Shown here: one piece after another, positions 1,752-53,434 of the stretch
Numbering within the stretch: the stretch's first letter is position 1
Layout of the letters: each line of letters starts with the position of its first letter
NCBI GenBank assembly: GCA_045627065.1
Contig: JAZQMX010000048.1
Location: forward strand, 13,014 to 77,013
DNA length: 64,000 bases
Reading direction: 5' to 3'
DNA from: Bacteroidales bacterium
GTDB lineage: Bacteria; Bacteroidota; Bacteroidia; Bacteroidales; F082
Made by a program: the position numbers and the translations under genes
Notes under the pieces: generated by a model
The model's input: the letters and a program-made list of their open reading frames with translations, nothing else
What the model was told of the DNA's origin: nothing
Database searches by the model: none

Positions 1752-3311
1752 TTACAATTTATACCCCAATTTCTCGAACAATGCCTTCAATTCCGCCTTC
1801 GATTTTTCCTCTTCGGCCAGCAGCTCGCGCAGGTCGCCTTGTAGCTGCTTCATCCTGCTGTCGAAATCGATCTGCTCGTCGCGGTTCACGAATTCGATGT
1901 ATTTGCTGGGCACCAACGAAAAATTCTTTTCCACAATTTCGTCGAAGGTGGCGGAATAGCAATATTCGGGAACGTCGCGATAGGCATCACCCTCCCGCTG
2001 CCAATCGTGGTAGGTGCGGGCCACGCGGGCGATGTCGTCGGCGGTCAGCTGCACGTATTTCTTTTCGTAGGGCGAACCCATCTGTCGCAGGTCCATGAAC
2101 AGCACCTCCTTCTCGCGGTCGCGGTAGTGCACCTCCTCGCCGTTGCGGCTGGCCACGCGGGCCTTCTTGTTGTTGTTCAATATCCACAATGTCACGCTGA
2201 TGTCGGTAGTGTAGAAGAGGTTGCGGGGCAATATCAGGATGGCTTCCACCAGCCCGCGCTCGAGCATCTTCTTGCGGATGGCGTACTCGGTGCCATCGGC
2301 GCTCAGCGCACCGTTGGCCAGAATGAAGCCCGCCACACCGTTGTAGCTCAGCTTGGAGACCATATTCATTATCCAGCCATAGTTGGCGTTGCTGGTAGGA
2401 GGTACCTCGAAGCTGGCCCAGCGGGGGTCGGTGATGAGCTCGTTGGCAGTGCGCCAGCCGCTCTGGTTGAAGGGCGGGTTGGCCATGATGTAGTCGGCCT
2501 TCAGGTCGCGGTGCTGGTCGTTGTGGAAGGTGTCGCCGAGGCGTATGTCGCTTGCGATGCCACGGATGGCGAGGTTCATGCGCGCCAGCTTGTAGGTCGT
2601 CTTGGTGTATTCCTGCCCATAGACGCTGATGTTCTTCTGGTTGCCATGGTGGGCACGGACGAACTTCATCGACTGAACGAACATGCCGCCCGAACCGCAG
2701 CAGGGGTCGTATATCTTGCCGTCGTAGGGCTCTATCATCTCGGCGATGAGGTTGACGATGCTCTTCGGCGTGTAGAACTCGCCCTTGCCCTTGCCTTCGG
2801 CGATGGCGAACTTGCCGAGGAAATACTCATACACGCGGCCAATGATGTCGTTCTCCTCGTCGCGCAGCGTGTCGAGGCGGTTGATCTCGTCGAGCAGGGC
2901 GGCGAACTTGCTCTTGTCGAGACCTAAGTTGCTGTAGTAGTTGGAGGGTAAGGCTCCCGCCAGCTGCTTGTTGGCCTTCTCGATGTTGGCGAGGGCATCG
3001 TCCACAATCTGGAAGATGTTGTCCTGCTTGGCATTGGCTATGATGAACGACCAACGGCACTCCTCGGGGAGGAAGAACACGTTGTCCTTGGCATAGAACT
3101 CTACCATGTCGGCAAACTCGTCGCCATATTGCGCGACGATTTCGCGGCGTTTTTGGTCGAAGTGGTCGCCGGCGTATTTGAGGAAAATGAGGCTGAGCAC
3201 GACGTGCTTGTATTCAGAGGGTTCCACTGAGCCACGCATCTTGTTGCACGACTCCCATAGGGCTTCCTCCATGGGCTTCTCGGGTTTGGTCTTTGTAGCG
3301 GTCTTTGCCAT
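1752..3311 (-). CDS. hsdM: Type I restriction-modification N6-adenine DNA methyltransferase HsdM
   Basis: 519 aa. It has the AdoMet motif DPCCGSGGMF, the catalytic motif IMANPPFNQSGW, and an HsdM N-terminal-like region (VVLSLIFLKYAGD). Confidence 0.95.
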   Translation of the reverse strand: MAKTATKTKPEKPMEEALWESCNKMRGSVEPSEYKHVVLSLIFLKYAGDHFDQKRREIVAQYGDEFADMVEFYAKDNVFFLPEECRWSFIIANAKQDNIFQIVDDALANIEKANKQLAGALPSNYYSNLGLDKSKFAALLDEINRLDTLRDEENDIIGRVYEYFLGKFAIAEGKGKGEFYTPKSIVNLIAEMIEPYDGKIYDPCCGSGGMFVQSMKFVRAHHGNQKNISVYGQEYTKTTYKLARMNLAIRGIASDIRLGDTFHNDQHRDLKADYIMANPPFNQSGWRTANELITDPRWASFEVPPTSNANYGWIMNMVSKLSYNGVAGFILANGALSADGTEYAIRKKMLERGLVEAILILPRNLFYTTDISVTLWILNNNKKARVASRNGEEVHYRDREKEVLFMDLRQMGSPYEKKYVQLTADDIARVARTYHDWQREGDAYRDVPEYCYSATFDEIVEKNFSLVPSKYIEFVNRDEQIDFDSRMKQLQGDLRELLAEEEKSKAELKALFEKLGYKL

Positions 3312-3349
3312 AGTGAGGGTGTTTTGGTGATGAATCTGTTTTATGCCTA

Positions 3350-3357
3350 CAAAATTA
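3350..3357 (-). promoter_or_regulatory. Bacteroidota sigma-A -7 box (TAATTTTG) for hsdM
   Basis: The reverse complement of caaaatta matches TAnnTTTG. It lies about 40 nt upstream of the hsdM ATG (3311). Confidence 0.5.
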
Positions 3358-3516
3358 CATTTTCTTTTTGATAAGACACCTTATAAATTGAACATATCTG
3401 AATCAAATTATGAAAATAGGACCTTCTCGGCCACGGAAGCATGTAGGCTTCTGCGTTTTGCTTCGCAAAATTATCTACCCAAATGGACACTGCGTGTCAT
3501 CGTGTGGGATTTTTGA

Positions 3517-3590
3517 TTATGAGACGCAAAATCTTGCGTTTTTACATACAATGACGACCCGTGTTTATGAGACGCAAAATCTTGCGTCTC
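3517..3590. repeat. Two direct copies of a 23-nt unit, each carrying a palindromic hairpin (GAGACGCA family)
   Basis: ttatgagacgcaaaatcttgcgt occurs at 3517-3539 and 3565-3587 (48-nt spacing). The stem is ACGCAA/TTGCGT. The second copy extends to gagacgcaaaatcttgcgtctc (3569-3590). Confidence 0.85.
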
Positions 3591-3714
3591 TACAGATGTG
3601 ACGTTATCGGGTTCTGGTCCCGTCATTTTGGGTTCTGGTTTTTGCCGTTCGCCTTTTTTTTGATTTTTTTGAAATTTTTTCATTCATGGACGCGCAGTGT
3701 CCATCAAGAGGCGT

Positions 3715-3722
3715 TATCTTTG
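3715..3722 (+). promoter_or_regulatory. Bacteroidota -7 box (TATCTTTG) for the WYL regulator gene
   Basis: Matches TAnnTTTG. It lies 34 nt upstream of the ATG at 3756. Confidence 0.55.
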
Positions 3723-3755
3723 TCGCATGATAAAATTAAATAGGAGGACTGAAAA

Positions 3756-4640
3756 ATGAAACAACTCGACGCACTGGTATGGATGATGAAAAAGACCTAC
3801 AGCGCCGGCAAGCGTGGCATCACCTTCGAGAGCCTCGCACGCCAGTGGGAGAACGAAGGCAACGACGAGGAGTTCCTGCGTCGCACCTTCCAACGCCGCA
3901 TCAACGCCATCCGCGAGCTGTTCGGCATCCATATCAAGCACATCGGCAACGGGTTCTATGCCATCACCGAAGCCGACAACGACATGGCACTCATGTCGGA
4001 GTGGTTCTTCAACTCCTATTATCTGCTCGACAAGGCGATACACCACAGCGAGCTGAAGCGTTGCATCCGCTACGAGCCTACACACCGTGGCACAGCCATC
4101 CTGGCACCTATCGTCGATGCCATCGTCGAGAAACGCCGCATCGCCTTCGGCTATCTCCGTTCATACGAGGACGCTACGCAACGCCGCGTGTCGCCGTTGG
4201 GCCTCTACCTCTATCAGCGCGAATGGTATCTGGTGGGCGAACAGGACGACGCCTCGCGCCGCTGTTTCGCCCTCGACCGCATCGGCGAAATCACCTTGCT
4301 CGACGAGACTTATGTCTATCCCGCCTCGTTCAGCATCGACGCCTATTTCCGCGATGCCTTCGGCATCTTCCGGCCCGAAGACGGCAAGGTCGAGAAGGTG
4401 GTGCTGCGCTTCTATGGCGACCGCGTCAAATACATCGAGAACATGCCGCTGCATCCTTCCCAAACACTGGAGAAGGTGGATGCCGCAAGCAGCACCTTCA
4501 GCTACAAACTCTTCCTCACCCCCGACCTGGAAGAACGTATCATGAGCTTCGGCGATAGGGTAGAGGTGCTGAACCCCGTCACGCTACGCCGCAAAATCGG
4601 AGAGAAACTTAAGAAAGCTTATTCGTATTATACTGATTGA
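3756..4640 (+). CDS. WYL-domain transcriptional regulator (wHTH-WYL-WCX architecture, BrxR/CapW-like)
   Basis: 294 aa. The N-terminal winged-HTH-like segment is GITFESLARQW...RTFQRRINAIRELFGIHI. The WYL core is VSPLGLYLYQREWYLVGEQ. The C-terminal extension is typical of WYL regulators. Confidence 0.8.
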   Translation: MKQLDALVWMMKKTYSAGKRGITFESLARQWENEGNDEEFLRRTFQRRINAIRELFGIHIKHIGNGFYAITEADNDMALMSEWFFNSYYLLDKAIHHSELKRCIRYEPTHRGTAILAPIVDAIVEKRRIAFGYLRSYEDATQRRVSPLGLYLYQREWYLVGEQDDASRRCFALDRIGEITLLDETYVYPASFSIDAYFRDAFGIFRPEDGKVEKVVLRFYGDRVKYIENMPLHPSQTLEKVDAASSTFSYKLFLTPDLEERIMSFGDRVEVLNPVTLRRKIGEKLKKAYSYYTD

Positions 4641-4695
4641 GAATGAATTCGAACGCCACATATTGCCCTATCCCATTACATGACCGCGAAATGTG

Positions 4696-4947
4696 TCCTC
4701 CGCATTACGAAGGCGTTTTGCAGTCTCGTCATTTGGATATTCCGCATTGCGATAGCGTTTTGCAATCCCACAATTTGGATATTCTCCTTTGCGGATGCAT
4801 TTTACATGTGCGTGAATCGCTCATCCCTCATCGCAGAAGCGTTTTGCAACGTGATCATTCGAACCGTCCTCGTTACGGAAGCATTTTACCAATTCAAAAT
4901 TTGAATCATCCTCGATGCGAGCGTGTTTTACGACTTCGTAACTCGCA
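4696..4947. repeat. Six tandem degenerate 42-bp repeats (exact 42-nt phase)
   Basis: The core GCGTTTTGCA or a variant recurs at 4713, 4755, 4797, 4839, 4881 and 4923, which is exactly 42 nt apart. Units 1 and 2 match at about 31 of 42 positions by hand alignment. Later units are more diverged. Confidence 0.85.
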
Positions 4948-5119: not shown

Positions 5120-5890
5120 ATGAAGTATATTACTTTTGCTAGAAACTGTCATGCTTCGGAAGCATCGGCAGTTGCCACTCGCCTCGTGGCGCTATATGAA
5201 GGCATGGAGTTCCCTGAGGACTCATATCTGCGTAACGCTATGTCGGATTTCAAGGATCTGGCTGTGCGTATTGACTCGGCTGTGGACCGCAAGGTTCGTG
5301 CAGCCTACGACACTGAAGACGCCCAGCGTGCCCAGTGCCTGCGTTCGTTGTATCACTTGCTGCGTAGTGCCGTGGCATCGCAAGATGCCAACGTGAGTGC
5401 TCATGCGGCGGTAGTCTATCAAGCCTTCCGTTCGTGCGGTCTCTCGGTGCTTCACAAGGGCCTCGACGAGCGTACGGGTCATATCGACTCGTTGCTCACC
5501 GACCTCTCTGCCACCGAAATCCAGTCGCACATCGCAGCGGTGCCTGGTCTGGCCGACAGCATCAGCCAACTCGAAACGGCTCAACAAGCCTTCGAGGCCA
5601 AGCGTGTCGACTATCAGTCGCGCCGTGGCGCAATGCAGAACTCCGACTGTGCTTCTGCACTGAAACTGAGGGTGATGGACATGGTGAACAACACTATCCT
5701 TCCTTACTTCGGTACCATGGCCAAGGTGAAAGGCGGAGTCTATGCCGACTTCAACGACACCTTGTGTCAGGTGGTTGCGTCGGCCAATGCTAGCGCTAAG
5801 CTGCATTCGCGCCACAAGAAAACCGAAGTGGAACAGGAGCCGACCTATGTCGCACCAACTAATGAAGAGGGAGGACCTCTCACGGCATAG
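5120..5890 (+). CDS. Hypothetical alpha-helical protein (possibly the Bacteroidota family annotated DUF6261; unverified)
   Basis: The track ORF 4637-5890 is trimmed to the in-frame ATG at 5120 (MKYITFARN...). The upstream part is the 42-bp repeat array plus an A-rich stretch with a T8 run just before the ATG. The start is uncertain; 4643 and 5057 are alternatives. Confidence 0.5.
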   Translation: MKYITFARNCHASEASAVATRLVALYEGMEFPEDSYLRNAMSDFKDLAVRIDSAVDRKVRAAYDTEDAQRAQCLRSLYHLLRSAVASQDANVSAHAAVVYQAFRSCGLSVLHKGLDERTGHIDSLLTDLSATEIQSHIAAVPGLADSISQLETAQQAFEAKRVDYQSRRGAMQNSDCASALKLRVMDMVNNTILPYFGTMAKVKGGVYADFNDTLCQVVASANASAKLHSRHKKTEVEQEPTYVAPTNEEGGPLTA

Positions 5891-5909
5891 GCAAAACACT
5901 TTTTAATCT

Positions 5910-6001
5910 CTGCTTAATATGACTTAACCAAAAGCCCTTATTAAGCAGTAAGAACCAGCCTCACATAAACGGCCATTCCGCCATCCATAATGGGGCTGGT
6001 T
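5910..6001. terminator. Convergent-gene hairpins between the hypothetical CDS and alaS
   Basis: ctgcttaat/attaagcag spans 5910-5948. aaccagcc/ggctggtt spans 5953-6001 and is followed by tgtttatt. The loops are long, so this is weak as a classical terminator. Confidence 0.35.
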
Positions 6002-6012
6002 TGTTTATTATC

Positions 6013-8622
6013 TCAAATCTTCTCTCTCAGCATCTGCATAGCCTTCTGCAAGCCGTCGGCGTTGCGGCCACCGGCCACGCAGAGGGTCTTCTGTCCGCCG
6101 CCGCCGCCTTGGATTTCCTTGGCGACTTCGCGGATGGCCTTGGTGGCATCCAAGCCCTTGGCGTCAGCGTAGGTTTCAGGCAGCAGGAAGCAGAGCGAGG
6201 GCTTGCCTTCGCTGATGGAGCCGAGGATGGCGATGGTGTTCTCGTCGCGCTGCTTGAGCATCAGGGCGATGTTGCGCAGCTGGTCGCCAGTGACACTCAG
6301 CGTGTCGATGATGAGATGGCAGCCTTCGTGTTCGACGGCCTTGTCGGCGAGCTTCTCGGCGATGGCTTGAGCCTTTTCCTGCATCAGGTGTTCGACTTCC
6401 TTCTTCAAGGCTGAGTTCTGCTCGGCTAATGACTCTACGCCTTTCACCACGTCGGGCGACTTGACGGTCTCGCGGATGCGGCCCAGGAGGTCGAGATTGT
6501 CGTCGAGGTATTGCTCCACGGCTTCGCCGGTGATGGCTTCGATACGGCGGATGCCGGCAGCGATGGCGCTCTCGGCAACGATCTTGAACATGCCGATGTT
6601 ACCCGTGGCGGAGGTGTGCACGCCGCCGCAGAGCTCCATGGAGTAGTCCTTGTCGAAGATGACGATACGCACCTTGTCGCCGTATTTCTCGCCGAACAGG
6701 GCGGTGGCTCCCATAGCCTTGGCGTCGTCGATCGGGACGTCGACCATGGTGACGTTAGGGATGTTCTCGCGAATCTTCTGGTTGACGATCTTCTCCACCT
6801 GATGGATCTCTTCAGGGGTCATCTTGGCGAAGTGGCTGAAGTCGAAGCGCAGACGTTGGTCGTCGACGAGTGAGCCTTTTTGTTCCACATGGGTGCCCAG
6901 CACTTGACGCAAGGCAGCGTGCATGAGGTGGGTGGCGCTGTGGTTGTTGGCGATGCGCTGACGGCGCTCGCGGTCGATGGTAGCCGTGAAGCTGTCTTCA
7001 GGGTTCTGTGGCAGCTGCTCGGTGATATGGATGACAAGGTTATTCTCCTTGACGGTATTCATGATTTTGATGGTCTCGTTTTCGGAGACCAGCACGCCGG
7101 TGTCGCCCACCTGGCCGCCCATCTCGGCATAGAAAGGCGTGCGGTCGAGGACGATCTCGAAGTGTGTCTTCTTCTTGGCCACCACCTCGCGGAAGCGGAG
7201 GATGTGGCTCTCGCATTGCGTCTCGGTGTAGCCCACGAACTCGGTGGGTTTCTCGGTCTCGGTCACCACCACCCAGTCGCCATTGGCTTTCTCGGCAGCC
7301 TTGCGCGAGCGGTTCTTCTGCTCATCGAGGTTGGCCTTGAAGCCGTCCATATCCACGTTGAGGCCTTTTTCGTTGGCCATGAGTTGGGTGAGGTCGATAG
7401 GGAAGCCGTAGGTGTCGAACAGCTCGAAGGCGAAGTTGCCGTCGATGTCCTGACCTTGATGTTGCTCGATGTAGCCTTCAAAGCGCTTGATGCCTTGTGC
7501 GAGGGTGCGCAGGAACGAGGCTTCTTCTTCGCGGATGACCTTGCCGACGAGTTCTTGCTGAGCCTTGATCTCGGGGTAGTTGTGTTCCATCTGGCCGACG
7601 AGGATAGGCAGCAGCTTGTGGACGAAAGGCTCGTCGAAGCCGAGGAAGGTGAAGCCATAGCGCACGGCGCGACGCAGCACGCGGCGGATGACGTAGCCGG
7701 CTCCGTTGTTGGAAGGCAGCTGTCCGTCGGCGATGGCGAAGCTCACGGCGCGCAGGTGGTCAGCGATGACGCGCATGGCGACGTCGGTCTTCTCGGCCTG
7801 GCCGTAGGCGATACCCGACATCTTGGCGAGTTCCTGGATCAACGGTTGGAACACGTCGGTGTCGTAGTTCGAGGTCTTGCCTTGCAGCACGCGCACGAGT
7901 CGCTCGAAGCCCATGCCGGTATCGACATGCTTGGCGGGCAGTTCAACAAGTTGGCCGTTGGCCATGCGGTTGTATTGCATGAACACGAGGTTCCATATCT
8001 CGATGACTTGTGGGTCATCCTTGTTGACGAGGTCGCGGCCAGCGATCTTCTGGCGCTCGGCTTCGGGACGCAGGTCGATGTGGATTTCGGAGCAAGGGCC
8101 GCATGGTCCCGTCTCGCCCATCTCCCAGAAGTTGTCGTGCTTGTTGCCGTAGATGATGCGGTCTTCGCTGACGTGCTCCATCCAGTAGCCGTAGGCTTCC
8201 ATGTCAGCAGGCTGGCCGTCCTTTTCGTCGCCGCCATAAACGGTGACGTAGAGTTTGTCCTTGTCAATCTTCACCACCTCGGTGAGGTATTCCCAAGCGT
8301 AGGCGATGGCTTCTTTCTTGAAGTAGTCGCCGAAACTCCAATTGCCGAGCATCTCGAACATGGTGTGGTGATAGGTGTCGTGGCCCACCTCTTCAAGGTC
8401 GTTGTGCTTGCCCGAGACGCGGAGGCACTTCTGCGTGTCGGAAGCGCGTTTCCATTTGGCAGGCTGGTTGCCCAAGAAGATGTCCTTGAATTGGTTCATG
8501 CCCGCGTTGGTGAACATGAGGGTAGGGTCGTTCTTCACGACGATAGGTGCCGATGGCACTATGGTGTGTTCCTTGGAACGGAAGAAGTCCAAGAAGCTGT
8601 TTCTGATTTCGTATGCGTTCAT
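6013..8622 (-). CDS. alaS: Alanine--tRNA ligase
   Basis: 869 aa, starting MNAYEIRNSFLDFFRSKEHTIVPSAPIV. It has class II AlaRS motifs, the editing-domain HxxxH (HSATHLMHAAL) and a C-terminal DHHA1-like GGGGG region. Confidence 0.97.
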   Translation of the reverse strand: MNAYEIRNSFLDFFRSKEHTIVPSAPIVVKNDPTLMFTNAGMNQFKDIFLGNQPAKWKRASDTQKCLRVSGKHNDLEEVGHDTYHHTMFEMLGNWSFGDYFKKEAIAYAWEYLTEVVKIDKDKLYVTVYGGDEKDGQPADMEAYGYWMEHVSEDRIIYGNKHDNFWEMGETGPCGPCSEIHIDLRPEAERQKIAGRDLVNKDDPQVIEIWNLVFMQYNRMANGQLVELPAKHVDTGMGFERLVRVLQGKTSNYDTDVFQPLIQELAKMSGIAYGQAEKTDVAMRVIADHLRAVSFAIADGQLPSNNGAGYVIRRVLRRAVRYGFTFLGFDEPFVHKLLPILVGQMEHNYPEIKAQQELVGKVIREEEASFLRTLAQGIKRFEGYIEQHQGQDIDGNFAFELFDTYGFPIDLTQLMANEKGLNVDMDGFKANLDEQKNRSRKAAEKANGDWVVVTETEKPTEFVGYTETQCESHILRFREVVAKKKTHFEIVLDRTPFYAEMGGQVGDTGVLVSENETIKIMNTVKENNLVIHITEQLPQNPEDSFTATIDRERRQRIANNHSATHLMHAALRQVLGTHVEQKGSLVDDQRLRFDFSHFAKMTPEEIHQVEKIVNQKIRENIPNVTMVDVPIDDAKAMGATALFGEKYGDKVRIVIFDKDYSMELCGGVHTSATGNIGMFKIVAESAIAAGIRRIEAITGEAVEQYLDDNLDLLGRIRETVKSPDVVKGVESLAEQNSALKKEVEHLMQEKAQAIAEKLADKAVEHEGCHLIIDTLSVTGDQLRNIALMLKQRDENTIAILGSISEGKPSLCFLLPETYADAKGLDATKAIREVAKEIQGGGGGQKTLCVAGGRNADGLQKAMQMLREKI

Positions 8623-8807
8623 TTTATGTTGTATTTTTATGCTATCAAGAGAGTTTCCGTTTCGCTTTGCTCAGGAATGGAGTGCGTTTTTTCAGTGAAA
8701 GACGGCGGTTATCACTGTATTCTATAGATTGAATTAGTCACCGTCGCAGAACAAATCTACAATGCACTCCATTCCGCCGTGTGGCGGAACCTTATTAAAA
8801 AAGTGTG

Positions 8808-47771: not shown

Positions 47772-47910
47772 TTATTCTTCATGTCTCTTATCCCGCCTAT
47801 AATCTGATTTCAGGAACGATGCAGTCTGCTTCGGAATGAAGCGAACTTCCTGTAAAACATAATTTATTGATTTTGACGGTGCAAAGATAAATAATTTTTG
47901 TCAATGCAAA

Positions 47911-47963
47911 TGAAAATCGGGACTTTTTCCTATGTTTTTATGGTGAAAATCGGGACTTTTTCC
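47911..47963. repeat. Two direct copies of a 20-nt unit (33-nt spacing)
   Basis: tgaaaatcgggactttttcc occurs at 47911-47930 and 47944-47963. Confidence 0.9.
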
Positions 47964-48006
47964 ATGCTTGCTGCTGAAAATTGAACACGTTGCAAGCAAA
48001 ATCCAT

Positions 48007-48045
48007 GGTTCTTAATTCATAAATCATTATCTTTGCGGCAAATAA
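48007..48045. repeat. Left copy of a perfect 39-bp direct repeat (carries the -7 box TATCTTTG at 48028-48035)
   Basis: ggttcttaattcataaatcattatctttgcggcaaataa is identical to 50653-50691. Weaker similarity extends about 45 nt further left (cgttgcaagcaaaat / cgtcgcaagcaaaat; atgctt). Confidence 0.95.
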
Positions 48046-48081
48046 ACGTTTTTTTCCTTGACAAACACATTTTTTATTTTA

Positions 48082-48089
48082 TAACTTTG
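48082..48089 (+). promoter_or_regulatory. -7 box (TAACTTTG) at the head of the islet
   Basis: Matches TAnnTTTG, with ttgacaaa about 30 nt upstream. It lies about 390 nt upstream of the first islet CDS. Confidence 0.45.
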
Positions 48090-48197
48090 CAGCGACAATC
48101 ACAACGAAGATGAAACGCATGGGCCAAATAGGGTCTTATCTACGCTCCATCCTTTGCTGCACGGCAAAGCGGTTGAATGATTCCGTGATTTTCTTTA

Positions 48198-48207
48198 CCC
48201 CCCCCCC
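48198..48207. repeat. C10 homopolymer tract
   Basis: ctttaCCCCCCCCCCtgtg has ten consecutive C by direct count. It lies in the islet leader, within a 53-codon sORF (48110-48271). Confidence 0.95.
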
Positions 48208-48477
48208 TGTGCGATATACTGATAAGCAATGCATTACGATTTATTGTAGTGGATTGTGTATTTTCGTGTGAGAAAGCGGGCGAAGTTCTTTGGCATTTTG
48301 GGAAAAATCGTTTCATTGGGTGGTCGCCTCGCAATAAGTTGGCCAAACAGCCGTTTGCGGGGTAAAGCCAAATAGAGGCAAGGGAGAAACACTCTTCGTG
48401 CTGAGGGAAGGTCAAACCAAGGCATGGGTTTGGCGTGATGACCAAATGAAACGATAATCAATTAAAATTTGAACAAT

Positions 48478-49197
48478 ATGAAAACTAAAAAATACATTAT
48501 TGCCGCCATACTGCTTGTGGTGGCTGTCGCTGCTACCGTTTTGATGGGATGCAAGAAGGAAAAACTTGAATATAGTTGCAATCCTGAAATTGATAAATGG
48601 GCTAAGAAGAATGCAGAGTTGTTCGCCTCTGCAAGTAGAGAACAAGTAGCCATGCTTCCTCTCGAATATCAGCAAGCTGCCTTTCGAACCCTTTCTCCCT
48701 TGCGGAAGTATAGAATATGGAAAGAAAAGATGACCATCATTCGTAGCAATTGGGATGAACCAGTCCAATTTAAGATAGATGAGATTTTGAAAGAGTTCGA
48801 TTCTTCTTGGTATGTGTCAAAACAAGATTTAGAGAAACATGTTGATTTTATTAAGAAATGGGAAGATGATATGTTGAGACATTATTTGGACACGACGGAT
48901 TATGTCATCAATTTTTATCTCTTAGCTACTCCAGAGGAAATCGATGTTTACTTAAATTATCCAGAAACTATTGACTATTCTTGGGTGATATTTCCAAGAG
49001 AGCATAGCAAGGATGTGCCAGGAGGAAACCAATCCACAAAAACAAAATGTATGTGTAGCACCAATATCTCGTGTTCTCTTTTCGGAAATGGCACTTGTAC
49101 TAATACGGAATGTGAACAAACTTCAGGAGGCTGTGGCCTTTTTGGTGCATTTGACTGTAGGAAAGATTGTACTTATGGGGCTAGTGTAATAAAGTGA
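48478..49197 (+). CDS. Lipoprotein with a C-terminal 8-Cys domain resembling fulvocin C-type bacteriocins
   Basis: The lipobox is ...AATVLMGC. The C-terminus is KCMCSTNISCSLFGNGTCTNTECEQTSGGCGLFGAFDCRKDCTYG. The gene is AT-rich. Start at the ATG at 48478 (the track's TTG is at 48469). Confidence 0.6.
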   Translation: MKTKKYIIAAILLVVAVAATVLMGCKKEKLEYSCNPEIDKWAKKNAELFASASREQVAMLPLEYQQAAFRTLSPLRKYRIWKEKMTIIRSNWDEPVQFKIDEILKEFDSSWYVSKQDLEKHVDFIKKWEDDMLRHYLDTTDYVINFYLLATPEEIDVYLNYPETIDYSWVIFPREHSKDVPGGNQSTKTKCMCSTNISCSLFGNGTCTNTECEQTSGGCGLFGAFDCRKDCTYGASVIK

Positions 49198-49207
49198 GAA
49201 TGTTCTT

Positions 49208-50416
49208 ATGCCATCATTAGGTAAATGGTTTGAAACGGCCTTATTGTTGAGCGTTTGCTTTTTTGCAATCGTTTTTCTCCGTTGTGCTTATTGTCTTGAC
49301 GAAGATAATTCGATTTGGATTTTGCGCTCTGGAATTGCCATTGGCTATTTTTCGGAAGTGTATGTCGTATTTAGTAAGAAGATTCACAAAAGGCTCATTC
49401 ACGCCGTAATATTCGCTATTATGTCAGCCGGTATTGCCTTTGTCGCTCTCAGATACCGCAATGGCATAAATCCTTTGATGATGATTGTTTTTCCGGCTTG
49501 CTTTGTGGTCCCGATGGTAGTTGTTTACCTTATTTCAATACTGCCAATTTCAGAAATCTTGAAGAAAGCGAGTATTCTTTCTCTATTTGTTTTTGTCAGT
49601 TGTGCTTTCACTTGCGTATTAGGAAATGAAATCAAGAATGCTATTAGCGCATTGTTTGGAATTTTATTGTATTATTATACTGTTAAGGACAGAGATGAAT
49701 CTCCGACTAAGTTAGGTGTGCTTGCCATTTTTGTCGGTAGTTTTGCAATGTTGACATTGATGTTCGGAAGTATCAACCATACATTGTTCCCAATAGTTTC
49801 TTATATGGTTTCACTATGTGTATCATATATCATTATTCAGTATGTAAATTCAAAGAAAAAATGTTTTTTTGTTCTGGGAATATGGGCAATTACCCAAGTT
49901 GGAATGTCTCTGTGGCTGACTGAGCCTTCTGCTACGCTACTTATGTCGTATTCTAAGGAACATCGGGAACAATTAGCATTGACGAAATGTGATTGCCATC
50001 CTAACTATCTAATGATTACAAATAATAATGACACGATTTCGCCATCTTCATCAAGTGGGAAGACCATGGTTTTTTTGTTCTGGACTAGCGGATGTGGATA
50101 TTGCCATGAACGATTCAATGATTTTTCAGGGCTCGCATCTCAATTTGAGGATGATTCGTCAGTTATGTTTGTCTCGGCGTTTTTGCCAACTAAGGACGAC
50201 TCAGCTTATTATTGTGAAATGTTGAAGGAACGGTATGATTTTATTTGGGCAAAGACAGAAGCTCCAGAGATGATTAAAGAAGAATTGAAATTCAATGCAG
50301 TTCCTCATCTTGTTATTTTAAAAAATGATGGCAGTGTCGGGTATAATGGTTTATATTCAAACACATTTGTATATGACCCTGCGAGAATTATCAAAAGGTA
50401 TAGAAAGATACGATAG
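49208..50416 (+). CDS. Polytopic membrane protein fused to a C-terminal TlpA-like thioredoxin domain (CGYC)
   Basis: About 8-9 hydrophobic helices, then VFLFWTSGCGYCHERF...AVPHLVILKNDG. Additional Cys pairs are RCAYC and CAFTC. It starts 10 nt after the preceding CDS. Confidence 0.75.
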   Translation: MPSLGKWFETALLLSVCFFAIVFLRCAYCLDEDNSIWILRSGIAIGYFSEVYVVFSKKIHKRLIHAVIFAIMSAGIAFVALRYRNGINPLMMIVFPACFVVPMVVVYLISILPISEILKKASILSLFVFVSCAFTCVLGNEIKNAISALFGILLYYYTVKDRDESPTKLGVLAIFVGSFAMLTLMFGSINHTLFPIVSYMVSLCVSYIIIQYVNSKKKCFFVLGIWAITQVGMSLWLTEPSATLLMSYSKEHREQLALTKCDCHPNYLMITNNNDTISPSSSSGKTMVFLFWTSGCGYCHERFNDFSGLASQFEDDSSVMFVSAFLPTKDDSAYYCEMLKERYDFIWAKTEAPEMIKEELKFNAVPHLVILKNDGSVGYNGLYSNTFVYDPARIIKRYRKIR

Positions 50417-50463
50417 ATTTATGGGCAAGTAGCGGACTAAAATATCCATTATAGTAATGGTCA

Positions 50464-50501
50464 AAACGAGGGTGGCTATTTTAGGTTTCCCTCGTTTTTT
50501 T
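50464..50501 (+). terminator. Intrinsic terminator of the islet operon
   Basis: aaaCGAGGGtggctattttaggtttCCCTCGttttttt has a stem followed by a T7 run. Confidence 0.75.
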
Positions 50502-50652
50502 GCGAGTTTTTTTAACTTATCGCCTCTGCGTCGGGCTTATTCAAGGATTTGTTCATGCTACTATAATGGTATAGTCTTTCCATAGATTGGGAATCTCCCT
50601 ATGCTTCCCGCAAAACATTACATTCGTCGCAAGCAAAATTCGCGTAATTCGC

Positions 50653-50691
50653 GGTTCTTAATTCATAAATCATTATCTTTGCGGCAAATAA
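50653..50691. repeat. Right copy of the perfect 39-bp direct repeat (the -7 box TATCTTTG at 50674-50681 drives the M28 peptidase gene)
   Basis: Identical to 48007-48045. It lies 15 nt upstream of the ATG at 50706. Confidence 0.95.
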
Positions 50692-50705
50692 TAATTTCAA
50701 TTCTT

Positions 50706-53426
50706 ATGAAAAAGCATCTCCTTACCTTCATTGCACTGCTGGCAACGACTTTTGTCATGGCAGGCAACTTCGTGAGTATCAGTTATTCAGGTTATTCCAA
50801 CCTCCAGAAACTCTTTGCCGACAAGAATCTTGTCGTGCATTTTTATACTGACAATCAAGTGTTTGCCACGGCTGAACATTTCGATGCGGCAACCATGACG
50901 ATGATCGACGAAAACGCTTTTGCCGATTGCGAAGTCTATACCTTGCTCTATGGAACCGATTATCAGCAAGAGGCCTTGTATCGTCAGCCGGATTTTGTGG
51001 TCGTGAAAGGAACGGCACAGCCTATGAAAAACGATGGTTCTGTGGCCATCTTCAATAGGGAAGCATGTCTGCCTCAGTTGACACGCGAGTTTCCGGAAGT
51101 GACGGATGAGAACCCTGACATCCGCTATGCCATGGATCAGGTTTCCCAAGACTCGATGCGTGCTACGGTAGAGTTTTTGCAGGCATACCAGAACCGCAAA
51201 TGGGGAACCCAAAATGCCTTTGATGCTTCTGACTGGATCAAGAGCCGCTTTGAAGCTATGGGATTGGAAGAAGTTGAACAACAAGCCTTTACATACAGCG
51301 GTCAGAATGCCGCTCCTAATGTGATTGCCATCCAACGCGGCACGGTGAATCCTGATGTCTATGTGGTTTGCGGCAGCCACTTCGATTCGTACAGCTATTC
51401 CGGCAACTGCCCTGGTGCCGACGACAACGCTACGGGTGTGGCCAGCGTGCTCGAAACCGCCCGCCTGCTTTCGCAATATGAGTTCGATTATAGCATCATC
51501 TATTGCGCTTTCGGTTGCGAGGAAATGGGTCTCTACGGCAGTTCCGCCTACGCTTCACGCTGCCGCGAGCAAGGCATGGACATCATCGGCTATTTCAACA
51601 ACGACATGAACGGCTATCTCTATGGCGATGTGCATATTCACCAGATTTATCCTAATTCGGCTGAGCAATGCGGTGCGTTTTACCGCAGCGTTGGTGCTGC
51701 CTATTTCCCAGAGATGGTCATCGAGCACAAGAACTTCTCGTCGGGCGATAGCGACCATACTTCCTTCAATAACAATGGTTACCAAGGCATCTATCCGTTT
51801 GAGGATGTGGATCACTATAGCCCTTACATTCACACACCTAACGATACCATTGGCTTGAGCGTGAACGGTTGGCTGATGCCGCAACGTTATTGCCAAATGA
51901 ACCTCGGCTGCGTGGCCGAATGTGCTGTGATGCATCCTCGTGGGCCAGTCGTCTTCAATGAATATGTGCTTCACGATGATGGTGAACAGATTGACGGTAA
52001 GATGAATCCTGGAGAGAGAATCGTTCTTGACGTCACGATGCAAAATATGTTCGATTATGCTGTCAATGGAGTGAATGTGACCATCAGTTGCAACGATGAA
52101 AACGTTTCTTGGCAGACTCAAGAGGCCAATTTCGGTGATTTCGCTGCGGGCGAGACCAAGACTGTGGAACATGCCTTTGAGTTTTATCTCGACGAAAATG
52201 CTCCTGCACCAGCAAATTACCGCTTTACGCTTGTGGCTGATAATGGTACTGAAAGCTGCACATCTTCGTTCAAGATTACAGCCTACGCTCCTGTAATTGA
52301 ATATGCTAGCCTCGTCGTCCTTGATGATAACGGCTTGCTCGAACCTGGCGAAACCACAGACCTTCGTTTCCTTTTCGATAATGTCGGCAACGAAATCGCT
52401 TTCAATCTTGACGCTGTGCTTTCCACTGATTTTGAATTGATTACGCTTAACAATACAGAGACTCATGTTGCCGATGCACTTTTGCCTGGCGGTATGGCAT
52501 ACGCTGATTTCAATGTCACTTTAAGCTCTGAAGCTACGATGGCAATGGGTATCCCGTTTACATTGACGGTAGGAGGGAAGACCTTCGAGGTGGTTTATAA
52601 GAACGCTTGCAATGTGATCTTCACGCTGAACGATGCGTATGGCGATGGCTGGAATGGTGCCGCTCTGCTGGTTAATTTCAGCGACGGGACTCCTCAACGA
52701 TCGCTGACTGTCGCTTCGGGAAGCAGTGCGGTCTATATTGTCGAAATCGGAACAGGTGTGGAAGTGTCGCTGGCATGGCAAAATGGCTCGTGGGATAGCG
52801 AATGCAGCTATTCGGTGGCCTACGAAGGTGGCGCAACCATCTATTCGGGGCAAGGCTCTCAGAGCGGCACCTTCTTTACTTGGATTAACAACTGTGCTGG
52901 TGGTGGCGGTGATGCGCCTGAATTTTGCGGTAGCGTGCTTAATCTGGATGCACCAGTCGATAGACTCTATATCTCATGGGACGCTCCCGAAGGCGAAACG
53001 CCTGATTCATACGATGTCTATCGCGAGACGACATTCGTCGCCAATACGACCGAGACCGAGTTTCAAGACGATCCTGAATCATTTGGCTGGCTCGGTATCT
53101 GGATAAACTATTGCGTATATCCTGTCTATGGAAACTGCCAAGGCGAGATGGCTTGCGTTGAGGCCTATTGGGATCCTGATGGAGTGAATGAAGAAATGAG
53201 CCCAGTGAATGTGTATCCAAATCCAGCTGAGGGTCAAGTGATTGTTGAGGCTGATGGCTTGCAACGCATTGAGGTGTTCAATGTTTTGGGACAACAAGTG
53301 AAGGCTATCGAACTTGGAGGCCAAAACATCTATACACTTAACGTTGAAGGCTTCAATTCTGGTTTGTATCTTGCCAGAATCGTCACCAATTCTGGTGTTG
53401 AAACGGTGAGTGTCGTGGTAAAATAA
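50706..53426 (+). CDS. M28 family metallopeptidase with a large C-terminal extension and a T9SS sorting domain
   Basis: Start trimmed to MKKHLLTFIALLATTFVMA (ATG 50706). The M28 motifs are VVCGSHFDS, PGADDNATG, FGCEEMGLYGS and SDHTSF. The Por tail is VYPNPAEGQVIVEA...VFNVLGQQV...GLYLARIVT...VVVK. Confidence 0.85.
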   Translation: MKKHLLTFIALLATTFVMAGNFVSISYSGYSNLQKLFADKNLVVHFYTDNQVFATAEHFDAATMTMIDENAFADCEVYTLLYGTDYQQEALYRQPDFVVVKGTAQPMKNDGSVAIFNREACLPQLTREFPEVTDENPDIRYAMDQVSQDSMRATVEFLQAYQNRKWGTQNAFDASDWIKSRFEAMGLEEVEQQAFTYSGQNAAPNVIAIQRGTVNPDVYVVCGSHFDSYSYSGNCPGADDNATGVASVLETARLLSQYEFDYSIIYCAFGCEEMGLYGSSAYASRCREQGMDIIGYFNNDMNGYLYGDVHIHQIYPNSAEQCGAFYRSVGAAYFPEMVIEHKNFSSGDSDHTSFNNNGYQGIYPFEDVDHYSPYIHTPNDTIGLSVNGWLMPQRYCQMNLGCVAECAVMHPRGPVVFNEYVLHDDGEQIDGKMNPGERIVLDVTMQNMFDYAVNGVNVTISCNDENVSWQTQEANFGDFAAGETKTVEHAFEFYLDENAPAPANYRFTLVADNGTESCTSSFKITAYAPVIEYASLVVLDDNGLLEPGETTDLRFLFDNVGNEIAFNLDAVLSTDFELITLNNTETHVADALLPGGMAYADFNVTLSSEATMAMGIPFTLTVGGKTFEVVYKNACNVIFTLNDAYGDGWNGAALLVNFSDGTPQRSLTVASGSSAVYIVEIGTGVEVSLAWQNGSWDSECSYSVAYEGGATIYSGQGSQSGTFFTWINNCAGGGGDAPEFCGSVLNLDAPVDRLYISWDAPEGETPDSYDVYRETTFVANTTETEFQDDPESFGWLGIWINYCVYPVYGNCQGEMACVEAYWDPDGVNEEMSPVNVYPNPAEGQVIVEADGLQRIEVFNVLGQQVKAIELGGQNIYTLNVEGFNSGLYLARIVTNSGVETVSVVVK

Positions 53427-53434
53427 TGTGAGCT

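Follow-up and report, generated by a model that had tools for sequence, protein, structure and literature searches.

The stretch of DNA analyzed here (the window) comprises 64,000 nt of contig JAZQMX010000048.1 from a Bacteroidales bacterium. It carries on the forward strand a two-gene cassette of about 1.9 kb, in which open reading frame 1 (ORF1) encodes a Cys-rich lipoprotein precursor and ORF2 encodes a polytopic membrane protein fused to a thioredoxin domain (Table 1). A first-pass annotation made from the letters of the window had proposed that ORF1 is a fulvocin C-like bacteriocin and that ORF2 is its dedicated disulfide or immunity module, and the features on which that proposal was built were all recovered. 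ORF1 starts at ATG 48478, its N terminus (MKTKKYIIAAILLVVAVAATVLMG-C25) is a lipoprotein signal with the lipobox TVLMG-C25, and its tail, CMCSTNISCSLFGNGTCTNTECEQTSGGCGLFGAFDCRKDC, contains exactly eight Cys between aa 191 and 231. The ATG of ORF2 (49208) lies 10 nt past the stop codon of ORF1. The CGYC, RCAYC, and CAFTC motifs described for ORF2 are present, as are about nine hydrophobic helices; nine transmembrane (TM) helices were counted by eye and eight by a crude hydropathy scan, which missed a weak helix at residues 36-55.

Table 1. Features of the two-gene cassette and its immediate flanks, in window coordinates (aa, amino acids; AF2, AlphaFold2; pLDDT, predicted local distance difference test score)
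Feature	Positions	Strand	Basis
ORF1, 239-aa lipoprotein precursor, fulvocin C-related family	48478-49197	+	NF033852, homologs, AF2 model
Signal peptide and lipobox LMG-C25, followed by KKEKLE	48478-48552	+	sequence reading; family conservation
Cys34 in YSC(D/N)P motif	48577-48579	+	conserved in 200/205 homologs
All-helical N-terminal domain, aa 36-160	48583-48957	+	AF2 model
Low-confidence linker, aa 161-190, includes PGG	48958-49047	+	pLDDT <50 at aa 178-185
Eight-Cys C-terminal domain, C-x-C-x5-C-x7-C-x4-C-x6-C-x7-C-x3-C	49048-49173	+	homolog conservation
ORF2, 402-aa polytopic membrane protein fused to thioredoxin domain	49208-50416	+	profiles, topology, homologs
ORF2 membrane domain, 9 TM (manual), predicted N-in/C-out	49208-49927	+	hhalign, topology
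ORF2 RCAYC (C26/C29)	49280-49294	+	sequence; loop after TM1
ORF2 CAFTC (C132/C136)	49601-49615	+	sequence; outer half of TM5
ORF2 TlpA/ResA-like thioredoxin domain, predicted periplasmic	50000-50413	+	profiles, CxxC conservation
ORF2 active site CGYC (C296/C299)	50093-50104	+	sequence
Left direct repeat	47949-48045	.	54 nt at 70% and 46 nt at 93% identity to 50586-50691
Structured 5' leader before ORF1	48290-48477	+	folding vs shuffles
Terminator-like hairpin and T-run, 75 nt past ORF2 stop	50491-50516	+	
Right direct repeat, in M28 peptidase promoter region	50586-50691	.	repeat comparison

Membership of ORF1 in a fulvocin-type family was supported by profile search. The NCBIfam model NF033852 ("bacteriocin fulvocin C-related protein") matched ORF1 at 70.6 bits (cutoff 35; E 2.6e-19), spanning ORF1 aa 65-231 and model positions 1-149 of 150, and the Cys positions are conserved among homologs (see below). 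The eight-Cys domain shares the landmarks C-x-C-S-T and G-C-G with the fulvocin C family, while no Pfam family was matched by ORF1. When the tail of the family hidden Markov model (HMM) was aligned with what we take to be the sequence of fulvocin C (45 aa), the score was 13.4 bits with a high compositional bias. The anticipated correspondence held for six of the eight Cys, which fell in register, but not for the last two, which are spaced C-x-C in that peptide and C-x3-C in ORF1. Likeness of ORF1 to the fulvocin C peptide thus appears modest. Fulvocin C, from Myxococcus fulvus, is a peptide bacteriocin, whereas the Bacteroidota members of NF033852 are lipoproteins with an extra conserved Cys. 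For its purification as a bacteriocin and the determination of its primary structure, PMC8708641 cites Hirsch (1977) and Tsai and Hirsch (1981). Literature searches on fulvocin and on DUF1573, a family considered further below, returned nothing relevant, and the fulvocin C-related family goes unmentioned in a 2025 review of antagonism among Bacteroidales.

Among 5.8 billion proteins clustered at 90%, ORF1 stands as a singleton. Word-indexed protein searches with ORF1 and with ORF2 returned the query alone, and a 41-sequence ORF1 profile added four more matches in the word-indexed search. An exhaustive HMMER search, with representatives taken at 50% clustering, recovered 370 homologs of ORF1 (hereafter family 1), nearly all of them 210-250 aa in length and matched over their full length, the closest being 46% identical. 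Cys conservation was counted in 205 full-length homologs; 198 of these keep the lipobox Cys, and between 184 and 203 keep any given Cys of the tail. The body of ORF1 had been described as Cys-poor, a description that overlooked the nearly invariant Cys34 (Table 1). Together with the eight tail Cys, this residue gives mature ORF1 an odd number of Cys (nine), which would leave Cys34 unpaired. Spacing within the tail is near-fixed across the family (C-x-C-x5/6-C-x4-11-C-x3-6-C-x5/6-C-x7-C-x3-C), and the residues between the tail Cys are the most variable part of ORF1, with a mean identity of 20% as compared to 26% in the N-terminal domain.

An AF2 model of ORF1 calculated from a 41-sequence alignment (pLDDT 87; predicted template modeling score 0.80) consists of a signal helix, an all-helical domain, a disordered linker, and a small beta-rich Cys domain, with a pLDDT of 89-98 across aa 31-170. 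A Foldseek search of the PDB with this model found no relative (best E 3.8), nor did a profile search of PDB sequences with ORF1 yield a match. The linker is a possible processing region. A conserved GG processing site ahead of the tail was considered and rejected, as GG is present in only 49 of 115 homologs. The segment following the lipidated Cys bears on the predicted location of the protein. In Bacteroidota, K-(D/E)2 or Q-A-(D/E)2 at this position constitutes a lipoprotein export signal, and K-(D/E)2 is sufficient for surface exposure (PMC5080379). Among 169 homologs, 128 show either K-(D/E) or two or more acidic residues in this segment, comprising 23 exact matches, 42 with K-(D/E)x, and 63 with at least two acidic residues. 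ORF1 also contains D-T-T at Asp138 (48889-48897; aa 138-140), which fits what we take to be the Bacteroidota O-glycosylation sequon, D-(S/T)-(A/I/L/V/M/T); as a conserved sequon it was discarded, being kept in 21 of 41 closer homologs and in only 35 of 205 overall.

Related loci were collected by scanning 596 Gb of sequence, in which each species was represented by a single genome, for a degenerate DNA pattern designed by hand, [YF]SC[DN]x5Wx3[NHY]x8Rx26WxxK, which catches 43% of family members and carries approximately 38 bits by our own estimate. The scan yielded 89 loci, almost throughout from Bacteroidota, including Prevotella, Paraprevotella, Alloprevotella, Bacteroides, Muribaculaceae, Rikenellaceae, Paludibacter, Flavobacteriaceae, Chitinophaga, Hymenobacter, Saprospiraceae, and others. 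Two complete lipoprotein-partner pairs were binned outside the phylum, one in a metagenome-assembled genome (MAG) of Chloroherpeton thalassium (L034; 1.7-kb contig) and one in a Clostridia MAG (L043); either the pair has truly reached Chlorobiota, or these short contigs are contaminants of their bins.

Partner genes were tallied for 64 complete family-1 genes in other genomes, each followed by 1 kb or more of sequence. In 50 of the 64, the family-1 gene is followed on the same strand by a gene of the ORF2 type, at a median gap of 41.5 nt (≤150 nt in 42 of the 50). We refer to the five-TM membrane part of such partners as the module. The downstream partner is a membrane-thioredoxin fusion with CxxC in 28 of the 64, a fusion with a thioredoxin-like domain devoid of W-x3-CxxC in one, and the membrane module alone (135-170 aa) in 21; the module is found upstream only in one further case, and 13 have no module within 900 nt. 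In an earlier classification, the partners at L058, L077, and L081 keep a thioredoxin-like domain without CxxC; L077 and L081 are counted here among the 13. Unbiased clustering of neighboring ORFs detected the partner family at 63 loci, with 68 of its 74 ORFs located downstream on the same strand. For three homologs 25-28% identical to ORF1, the next same-strand gene encodes a Thioredoxin_8 protein of 289 or 394 aa, and both the membrane and the thioredoxin parts of these proteins align with ORF2. The gene pair read from the window is therefore syntenic across Bacteroidota genomes, but the proposed coupling to a thioredoxin fusion holds in part only: the pairing recurs, whereas thioredoxin is not constant, 21 of 50 partners being the module alone. 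No published description of a lipoprotein paired with a membrane-thioredoxin protein was found in the literature. Variations in gene number were also seen; L047 has two complete lipoprotein-partner pairs in tandem (5665-7917), and L011 (976-1440) and L040 (2146-2580) each have a second, shorter family-1 paralog (144-154 aa) beside the full gene and without a module.

Profile-profile comparison with hhalign connected the partner types to one another. Stand-alone partners matched the membrane domain of short fusions over their full length (98.6%, E 7e-16), and the short-form membrane domain in turn matched its long-form counterpart over the second half of the latter (96.8%, E 3e-10), the direct match of stand-alone to long form being weaker (72.9%). 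MauE, a four-TM family encoded at the same loci, gave less than 1% against the module as a negative control, so the module matches are not explained by hydrophobic composition alone. The same value led us to reject the module as a Cys-less relative of MauE/DoxX, and the idea that the long form arose by clean duplication of the module within one chain was rejected at a probability of only 11%. No Pfam or NCBIfam family matched the module. The family alignments contain no conserved stretch of 7-10 columns, and the module is too divergent for DNA-pattern scans. Topology was predicted with our own hydropathy and positive-inside script for 11 long and 23 short forms, ORF2 being additionally read by eye. 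Most partners were predicted to have nine (long) or five (short) TM helices, in an N-in/C-out arrangement for 7 of 11 long and 16 of 23 short forms (C-out overall for 8 of 11 and 19 of 23, ORF2 included), which would place the thioredoxin domain of ORF2 in the periplasm. Judged by these alignments, the constant partner of the lipoprotein is a new five-TM membrane module, with thioredoxin as an accessory.

Like ORF1, ORF2 is a singleton in protein clusters. It is 15-23% identical to eleven long-form homologs, and an AF2 model from the single sequence was unusable (pLDDT 39). Its first 250 aa match no Pfam or NCBIfam family. The thioredoxin domain scored 26.9 bits against Pfam Thioredoxin_8, just below the cutoff of 27, which homologous partners exceed (31.7 and 37.8 bits). 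Thioredoxin domains of the better-scoring partners resemble ResA, StoA, and TlpA but score well under the family cutoffs (ResA 52 vs 170 bits), and neither ORF2 nor the homologous partners achieved equivalog-level NCBIfam membership for this domain. The motif W-x3-C-x2-C is invariant in 11 of 11 long-form partners and is the sole invariant feature of ORF2 in that comparison; Pro366, invariant in a four-sequence alignment, is read as the thioredoxin cis-Pro. In its thioredoxin fold, W-x3-C-x2-C motif, conserved Pro, membrane tether, and predicted periplasm-facing orientation, ORF2 is reminiscent of TlpA, ResA, StoA, and CcmG. Those proteins have a single anchor helix and are usually reductants in cytochrome or spore maturation, as compared to a conserved 5- or 9-TM anchor and a linked Cys-rich lipoprotein as the likely substrate for ORF2-type partners.

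Besides RCAYC and CAFTC, ORF2 has a third pair of closely spaced Cys, C261-D-C263, located in the linker that leads to the thioredoxin domain. The membrane pairs had been suggested to form a relay like that of VKOR, DsbB, or DsbD, in which case ORF2 could be a self-contained disulfide generator, with all three pairs passing electrons from CGYC to membrane quinone. Consistent with such a route, all three pairs lie on the periplasmic side in the manual nine-TM, N-in reading (the automated scan gave eight TM), CXC is the active-site type of MauE, and the fused thioredoxin is otherwise without an evident oxidant. However, each position of the three pairs carries Cys in only one or two of 11 long-form partners, and all ORF2 Cys outside W-x3-C-x2-C are private to ORF2, for which no closer homolog exists. 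Three extra close pairs among 13 Cys compare with approximately 1.4 expected by chance (our own estimate), CAFTC is a CxxxC rather than a CxxC motif, and homology was detected neither to MauE nor to any redox membrane family of Pfam. Across the family, the most Cys-rich column of the membrane domain reaches an occupancy of 17% among short forms and 27% among long forms, although stand-alone modules have one Cys column at 61%. With no conserved membrane Cys column in the fusions, a DsbB/VKOR/DsbD-type thiol relay is not a family property, and the relay suggestion is unsupported at that level; a self-contained generator particular to ORF2 appears very improbable. The insertion that holds the third pair coincides with an exact 16-nt repeat, AATGTGATTGCCATCC, found at 49986-50001 in ORF2 and at 51318-51333 in the M28 peptidase gene, in different reading frames. 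The ORF2 copy encodes the private K-C-D-C-H-P insertion, and by our own estimate about 0.005 chance matches of this kind are expected in 6.5 kb.

The general arrangement of a membrane protein with a periplasmic CxxC thioredoxin-fold protein is shared with the disulfide-forming pairs MauE/MauD, DsbB/DsbA, and VKOR-thioredoxin, in some of which the two are fused as in ORF2. Unlike MauE, DsbB, and VKOR, the ORF2 module has no conserved Cys and no detectable homology to MauE by hhalign, and a module with neither conserved Cys nor homology to a curated family cannot act as a thiol relay of that style. A source of oxidizing activity is nevertheless encoded beside some family-1 genes. MauE genes were found at 10 of the 83 related loci used for neighborhood counts (L016, L018, L020, L021, L031, L037, L038, L066, L074, and L079), in each case on the same strand as the family-1 gene. 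The gene lies upstream in nine and downstream in L079, where the downstream module has no thioredoxin. All 10 proteins carry CGCFG. Their lengths as called range from 131 to 377 aa, most of the complete ones being 295-377 aa; L020 has 217 aa, and L074 is truncated where its contig stops. A C-terminal extension of approximately 200 aa without a detectable family is present in most of them, and a comparison of this extension with a degenerate thioredoxin gave no signal. MauE genes accompany 8 of 19 thioredoxin-less pairs but none of 36 fused pairs (Fisher p = 6e-5), a p value that overstates independence because the thioredoxin-less pairs are phylogenetically clustered, mostly in Prevotellaceae and Muribaculaceae. 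In a 2026 preprint, MauE replaced DsbB in Escherichia coli in a manner requiring the CXC-F-G motif, and MauE/MauD were found to mature a six-disulfide substrate (bioRxiv 10.64898/2026.03.05.709764).

By analogy of architecture, the closest described counterpart of the cassette appears to be the bacteroidetocin (class IIf) locus. Bacteroidetocin loci encode a five-TM protein and a thiol oxidoreductase; deletion of either attenuates toxin activity, and neither accessory protein protects a sensitive strain in trans (PMC6671954, Coyne et al. 2019). Bacteroides are said in the same work to lack general disulfide machinery (PMC6671954). A single ORF2 chain unites a five-TM-type module with a thiol oxidoreductase domain, a likeness that is one of architecture only. 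The substrates differ more widely. Bacteroidetocins are 42-aa peptides with four Cys and intramolecular disulfides, made with a GG leader and exported by a C39-peptidase ATP-binding cassette transporter, whereas ORF1, a Sec/lipoprotein precursor of 239 aa, combines 8+1 Cys with a large helical domain and has no GG leader; the cassette between its bracketing repeats holds two genes only, with no transporter gene. The exchange of a fused thioredoxin for a neighboring MauE, taken with the bacteroidetocin precedent, favors oxidative folding of the eight-Cys domain over its reductive neutralization, and suggests that a disulfide-forming activity accompanies the lipoprotein in two interchangeable forms.

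The alternative offered for ORF2 at the outset, immunity, would have the module shield the inner membrane of the producer, with the thioredoxin domain aiding folding or reducing the disulfides of incoming toxin. A small polytopic membrane protein encoded directly downstream of a bacteriocin gene, probably in translational coupling, is the classical layout of toxin and immunity genes, and the tandem pairs at L047 have the form of toxin-immunity arrays. Retention of the module where thioredoxin is lost or degenerate implies a function independent of redox chemistry. The module also has no invariant polar residues that would hint at catalysis, and it diverges fast, as the low identity of ORF2 to its long-form homologs illustrates. 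The reductive habit of TlpA/ResA-type domains would likewise suit the breaking of disulfides. On the other hand, in bacteroidetocin loci, the sole Bacteroidales analogue examined by experiment, the five-TM protein and oxidoreductase were needed for toxin activity and conferred no protection in trans, a family-1 gene without a module within 900 nt (13 of 64) would be hazardous to its host were the module essential for immunity, and the complementary occurrence of the MauE oxidase argues that the redox partner makes rather than breaks disulfides. We consider a toxin with its immunity protein an unlikely account of the pair; the role of the module is most likely maturation or escort of the lipoprotein.

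The cassette, which had been described as self-contained, is an accessory, horizontally acquired two-gene insert. Its GC content is 37-38%, as compared to 49% for the window, and it is absent from 67 of 67 metagenomic relatives, whose RsgA proteins are 75-89% identical. nadK directly follows rsgA in 57 of the 61 relatives with enough sequence, an adjacency which indicates that the whole 47772-53434 segment (cassette and peptidase gene) was inserted or was retained in a lineage-specific manner. The peptidase part has a normal GC content (0.49) relative to the cassette (0.37-0.38), which suggests two nested events. The direct repeats flanking the cassette share a perfect 40-nt core (left copy, 48007-48045) that was found only twice, both times in the window, and a TAnnTTTG -7 promoter-like box occurs at 48028 inside the left repeat. 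The true start of the M28 peptidase gene lies at approximately 50706, and its product is a 906-aa protein with a type IX secretion system sorting domain. The peptidase was rejected as a conserved partner, as no peptidase family recurs in the neighborhood clustering.

Bracketing repeats were also identified at other loci, among them L001 (5529-5620 / 7711-7802; 92 nt), L005 (5736-5835 / 8455-8554; 100 nt), and L006 (5375-5674 / 8491-8790; 300-444 nt), where the repeat duplicates part of aceK and the same GC trough is seen. The repeats consist of local target sequence, differ from locus to locus, and measure 40-444 nt, and no recombinase gene lies inside them. Such repeats were detected in 9 of 45 testable pairs, as compared to one in inverted (p = 0.0075) and three in shifted (p = 0.059) controls; at 9 of 45, they were rejected as a universal property of the pairs. 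A search of plasmids found no relatives of ORF1 or ORF2. Other repeats accompany these structures. In the window, a perfect 20-nt tandem-like repeat, TGAAAATCGGGACTTTTTCC, at 47911-47930 and 47944-47963 (33 nt apart), adjoins and overlaps the left bracketing repeat, and a diverged third copy opens the right repeat (50586...). L005 has four copies of an approximately 53-nt repeat (GACGTAGGCACAGCC...CGCCGAACAGGGG) at an irregular spacing of 48-95 nt upstream of the family-1 gene (5646-5916), with one further copy after the cassette (8508-8560) and a DDE transposase fragment inside the bracket. Upstream of ORF1, the leader (48290-48480) has a minimum free energy of -61.6 kcal/mol (z = -4.16), and none of 200 shuffles folded as well. 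Its long-range 15-nt stem (48307-48321 / 48441-48455; inverted repeat I3) ends approximately 20 nt before the start codon. The leader has no Rfam match and no detectable conservation in the other loci.

At other loci, the family-1 lipoprotein and the module form the end of a longer same-strand cluster that begins with a Wzy_C-like protein, a DUF1573 lipoprotein, and MauE. Among the 83 related loci, a DUF1573 lipoprotein gene lies near the family-1 gene in 40 and a Wzy_C gene in 29, as against the 10 with MauE, mostly on the same strand. The Wzy_C proteins are O-antigen-ligase-like, with 8-10 TM helices (examples for DUF1573/Wzy_C are L037 4718-5173 and 5148-6899, and L017 1778-3370), and in L037 the MauE (3666-4706) and family-1 (3001-3669) ORFs overlap by 4 nt. 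These associations raise a reading in which ORF1 is no weapon but an envelope lipoprotein, its disulfide knob serving a structural, adhesive, or receptor function and ORF2 acting as an assembly factor within a Wzy_C-DUF1573-MauE envelope system. In the ORF1 model, confidence is highest in the helical domain rather than in the Cys tail, which is consistent with an envelope protein, as is the lack of documented toxin activity for any Bacteroidota member in the literature. Yet the minimal two-gene unit moves alone, forming an islet of low GC content that is flanked by housekeeping genes in the window and lies within aceK in L006, and none of Wzy_C, DUF1573, or MauE was found in the 64-kb window. 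Absence from 67 close relatives combined with extreme divergence is typical of competition genes, and the curated family name ties the tail to a purified bacteriocin. An envelope function without antibacterial use is thus a distinctly unlikely explanation, less so than a self-contained generator.

The reading that we favor, and to which we give about an even chance, is that the cassette is an accessory two-gene unit making a disulfide-knotted, fulvocin-type lipoprotein, with ORF2 as its maturation partner and an antibacterial end use. The Sec pathway would export ORF1, and Cys25 would receive the lipid. Before ORF1 leaves the outer face of the inner membrane, the periplasmic CGYC domain of ORF2, anchored to that membrane through the family-specific polytopic module, would form or shuffle four disulfides in the 42-aa tail of ORF1. 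The module, as the universally conserved partner, would most likely serve specifically to mature or escort the lipoprotein, with redox activity supplied by the fused thioredoxin in this genome or, in other lineages, by a neighboring MauE-type oxidase. The finished lipoprotein would then move to the outer membrane, the cell surface, or vesicles, where the Cys-rich domain may act on competitors while still tethered or once the flexible linker has been cleaved. A new toxin-plus-maturation module of this kind is plausible.

Several observations weigh against this interpretation. The bacteriocin label derives from the NCBIfam name together with a weak, Cys-biased alignment to the presumed fulvocin C sequence, and the literature reports no antibacterial activity, processing, or partner for Bacteroidota members of NF033852. 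Between 30 and 50% of loci fall in the larger Wzy_C-DUF1573-(MauE) operon, which could indicate an envelope function rather than a toxin. With regard to folding, no oxidant is visible for the thioredoxin domain and the module has no conserved Cys; no MauE, DsbB, or VKOR was found in the window, where the dedicated check was for MauE. TlpA/ResA-type proteins are classically reductants, and the contrast between MauE and fused thioredoxin carries the phylogenetic clustering described above. Approximately 20% of family-1 genes have no module nearby, and the segment C-KKEKLE of ORF1 itself is a weak, partial match to the export signal.

A broader proposition is that the family-1 lipoprotein and the module represent a phylum-wide class of Bacteroidota weapon, namely a surface- or vesicle-tethered, disulfide-knotted toxin that is matured by a new membrane family with interchangeable redox add-ons and that spreads as a recombinase-less islet leaving 40-440-nt target duplications. 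We regard this extension as rather doubtful, although less so than an immunity function for the module. Bacteroidales are dominant members of gut communities, and to our knowledge only a handful of their secreted toxin families have been recognized. If antibacterial, the lipoproteins would constitute a widespread toxin class, which comprises 370 clusters at the 50% identity level and occurs in Bacteroidota of gut, rumen, oral, and environmental origin, and their partners would be a second, architecturally distinct, toxin-dedicated disulfide machinery after that of the bacteroidetocins. The five-TM module and the helical domain of ORF1 represent folds or families without solved or curated relatives. 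The natural exchange of thioredoxin and MauE beside these lipoproteins would furthermore give an in vivo context to the recently proposed MauE disulfide pathway.

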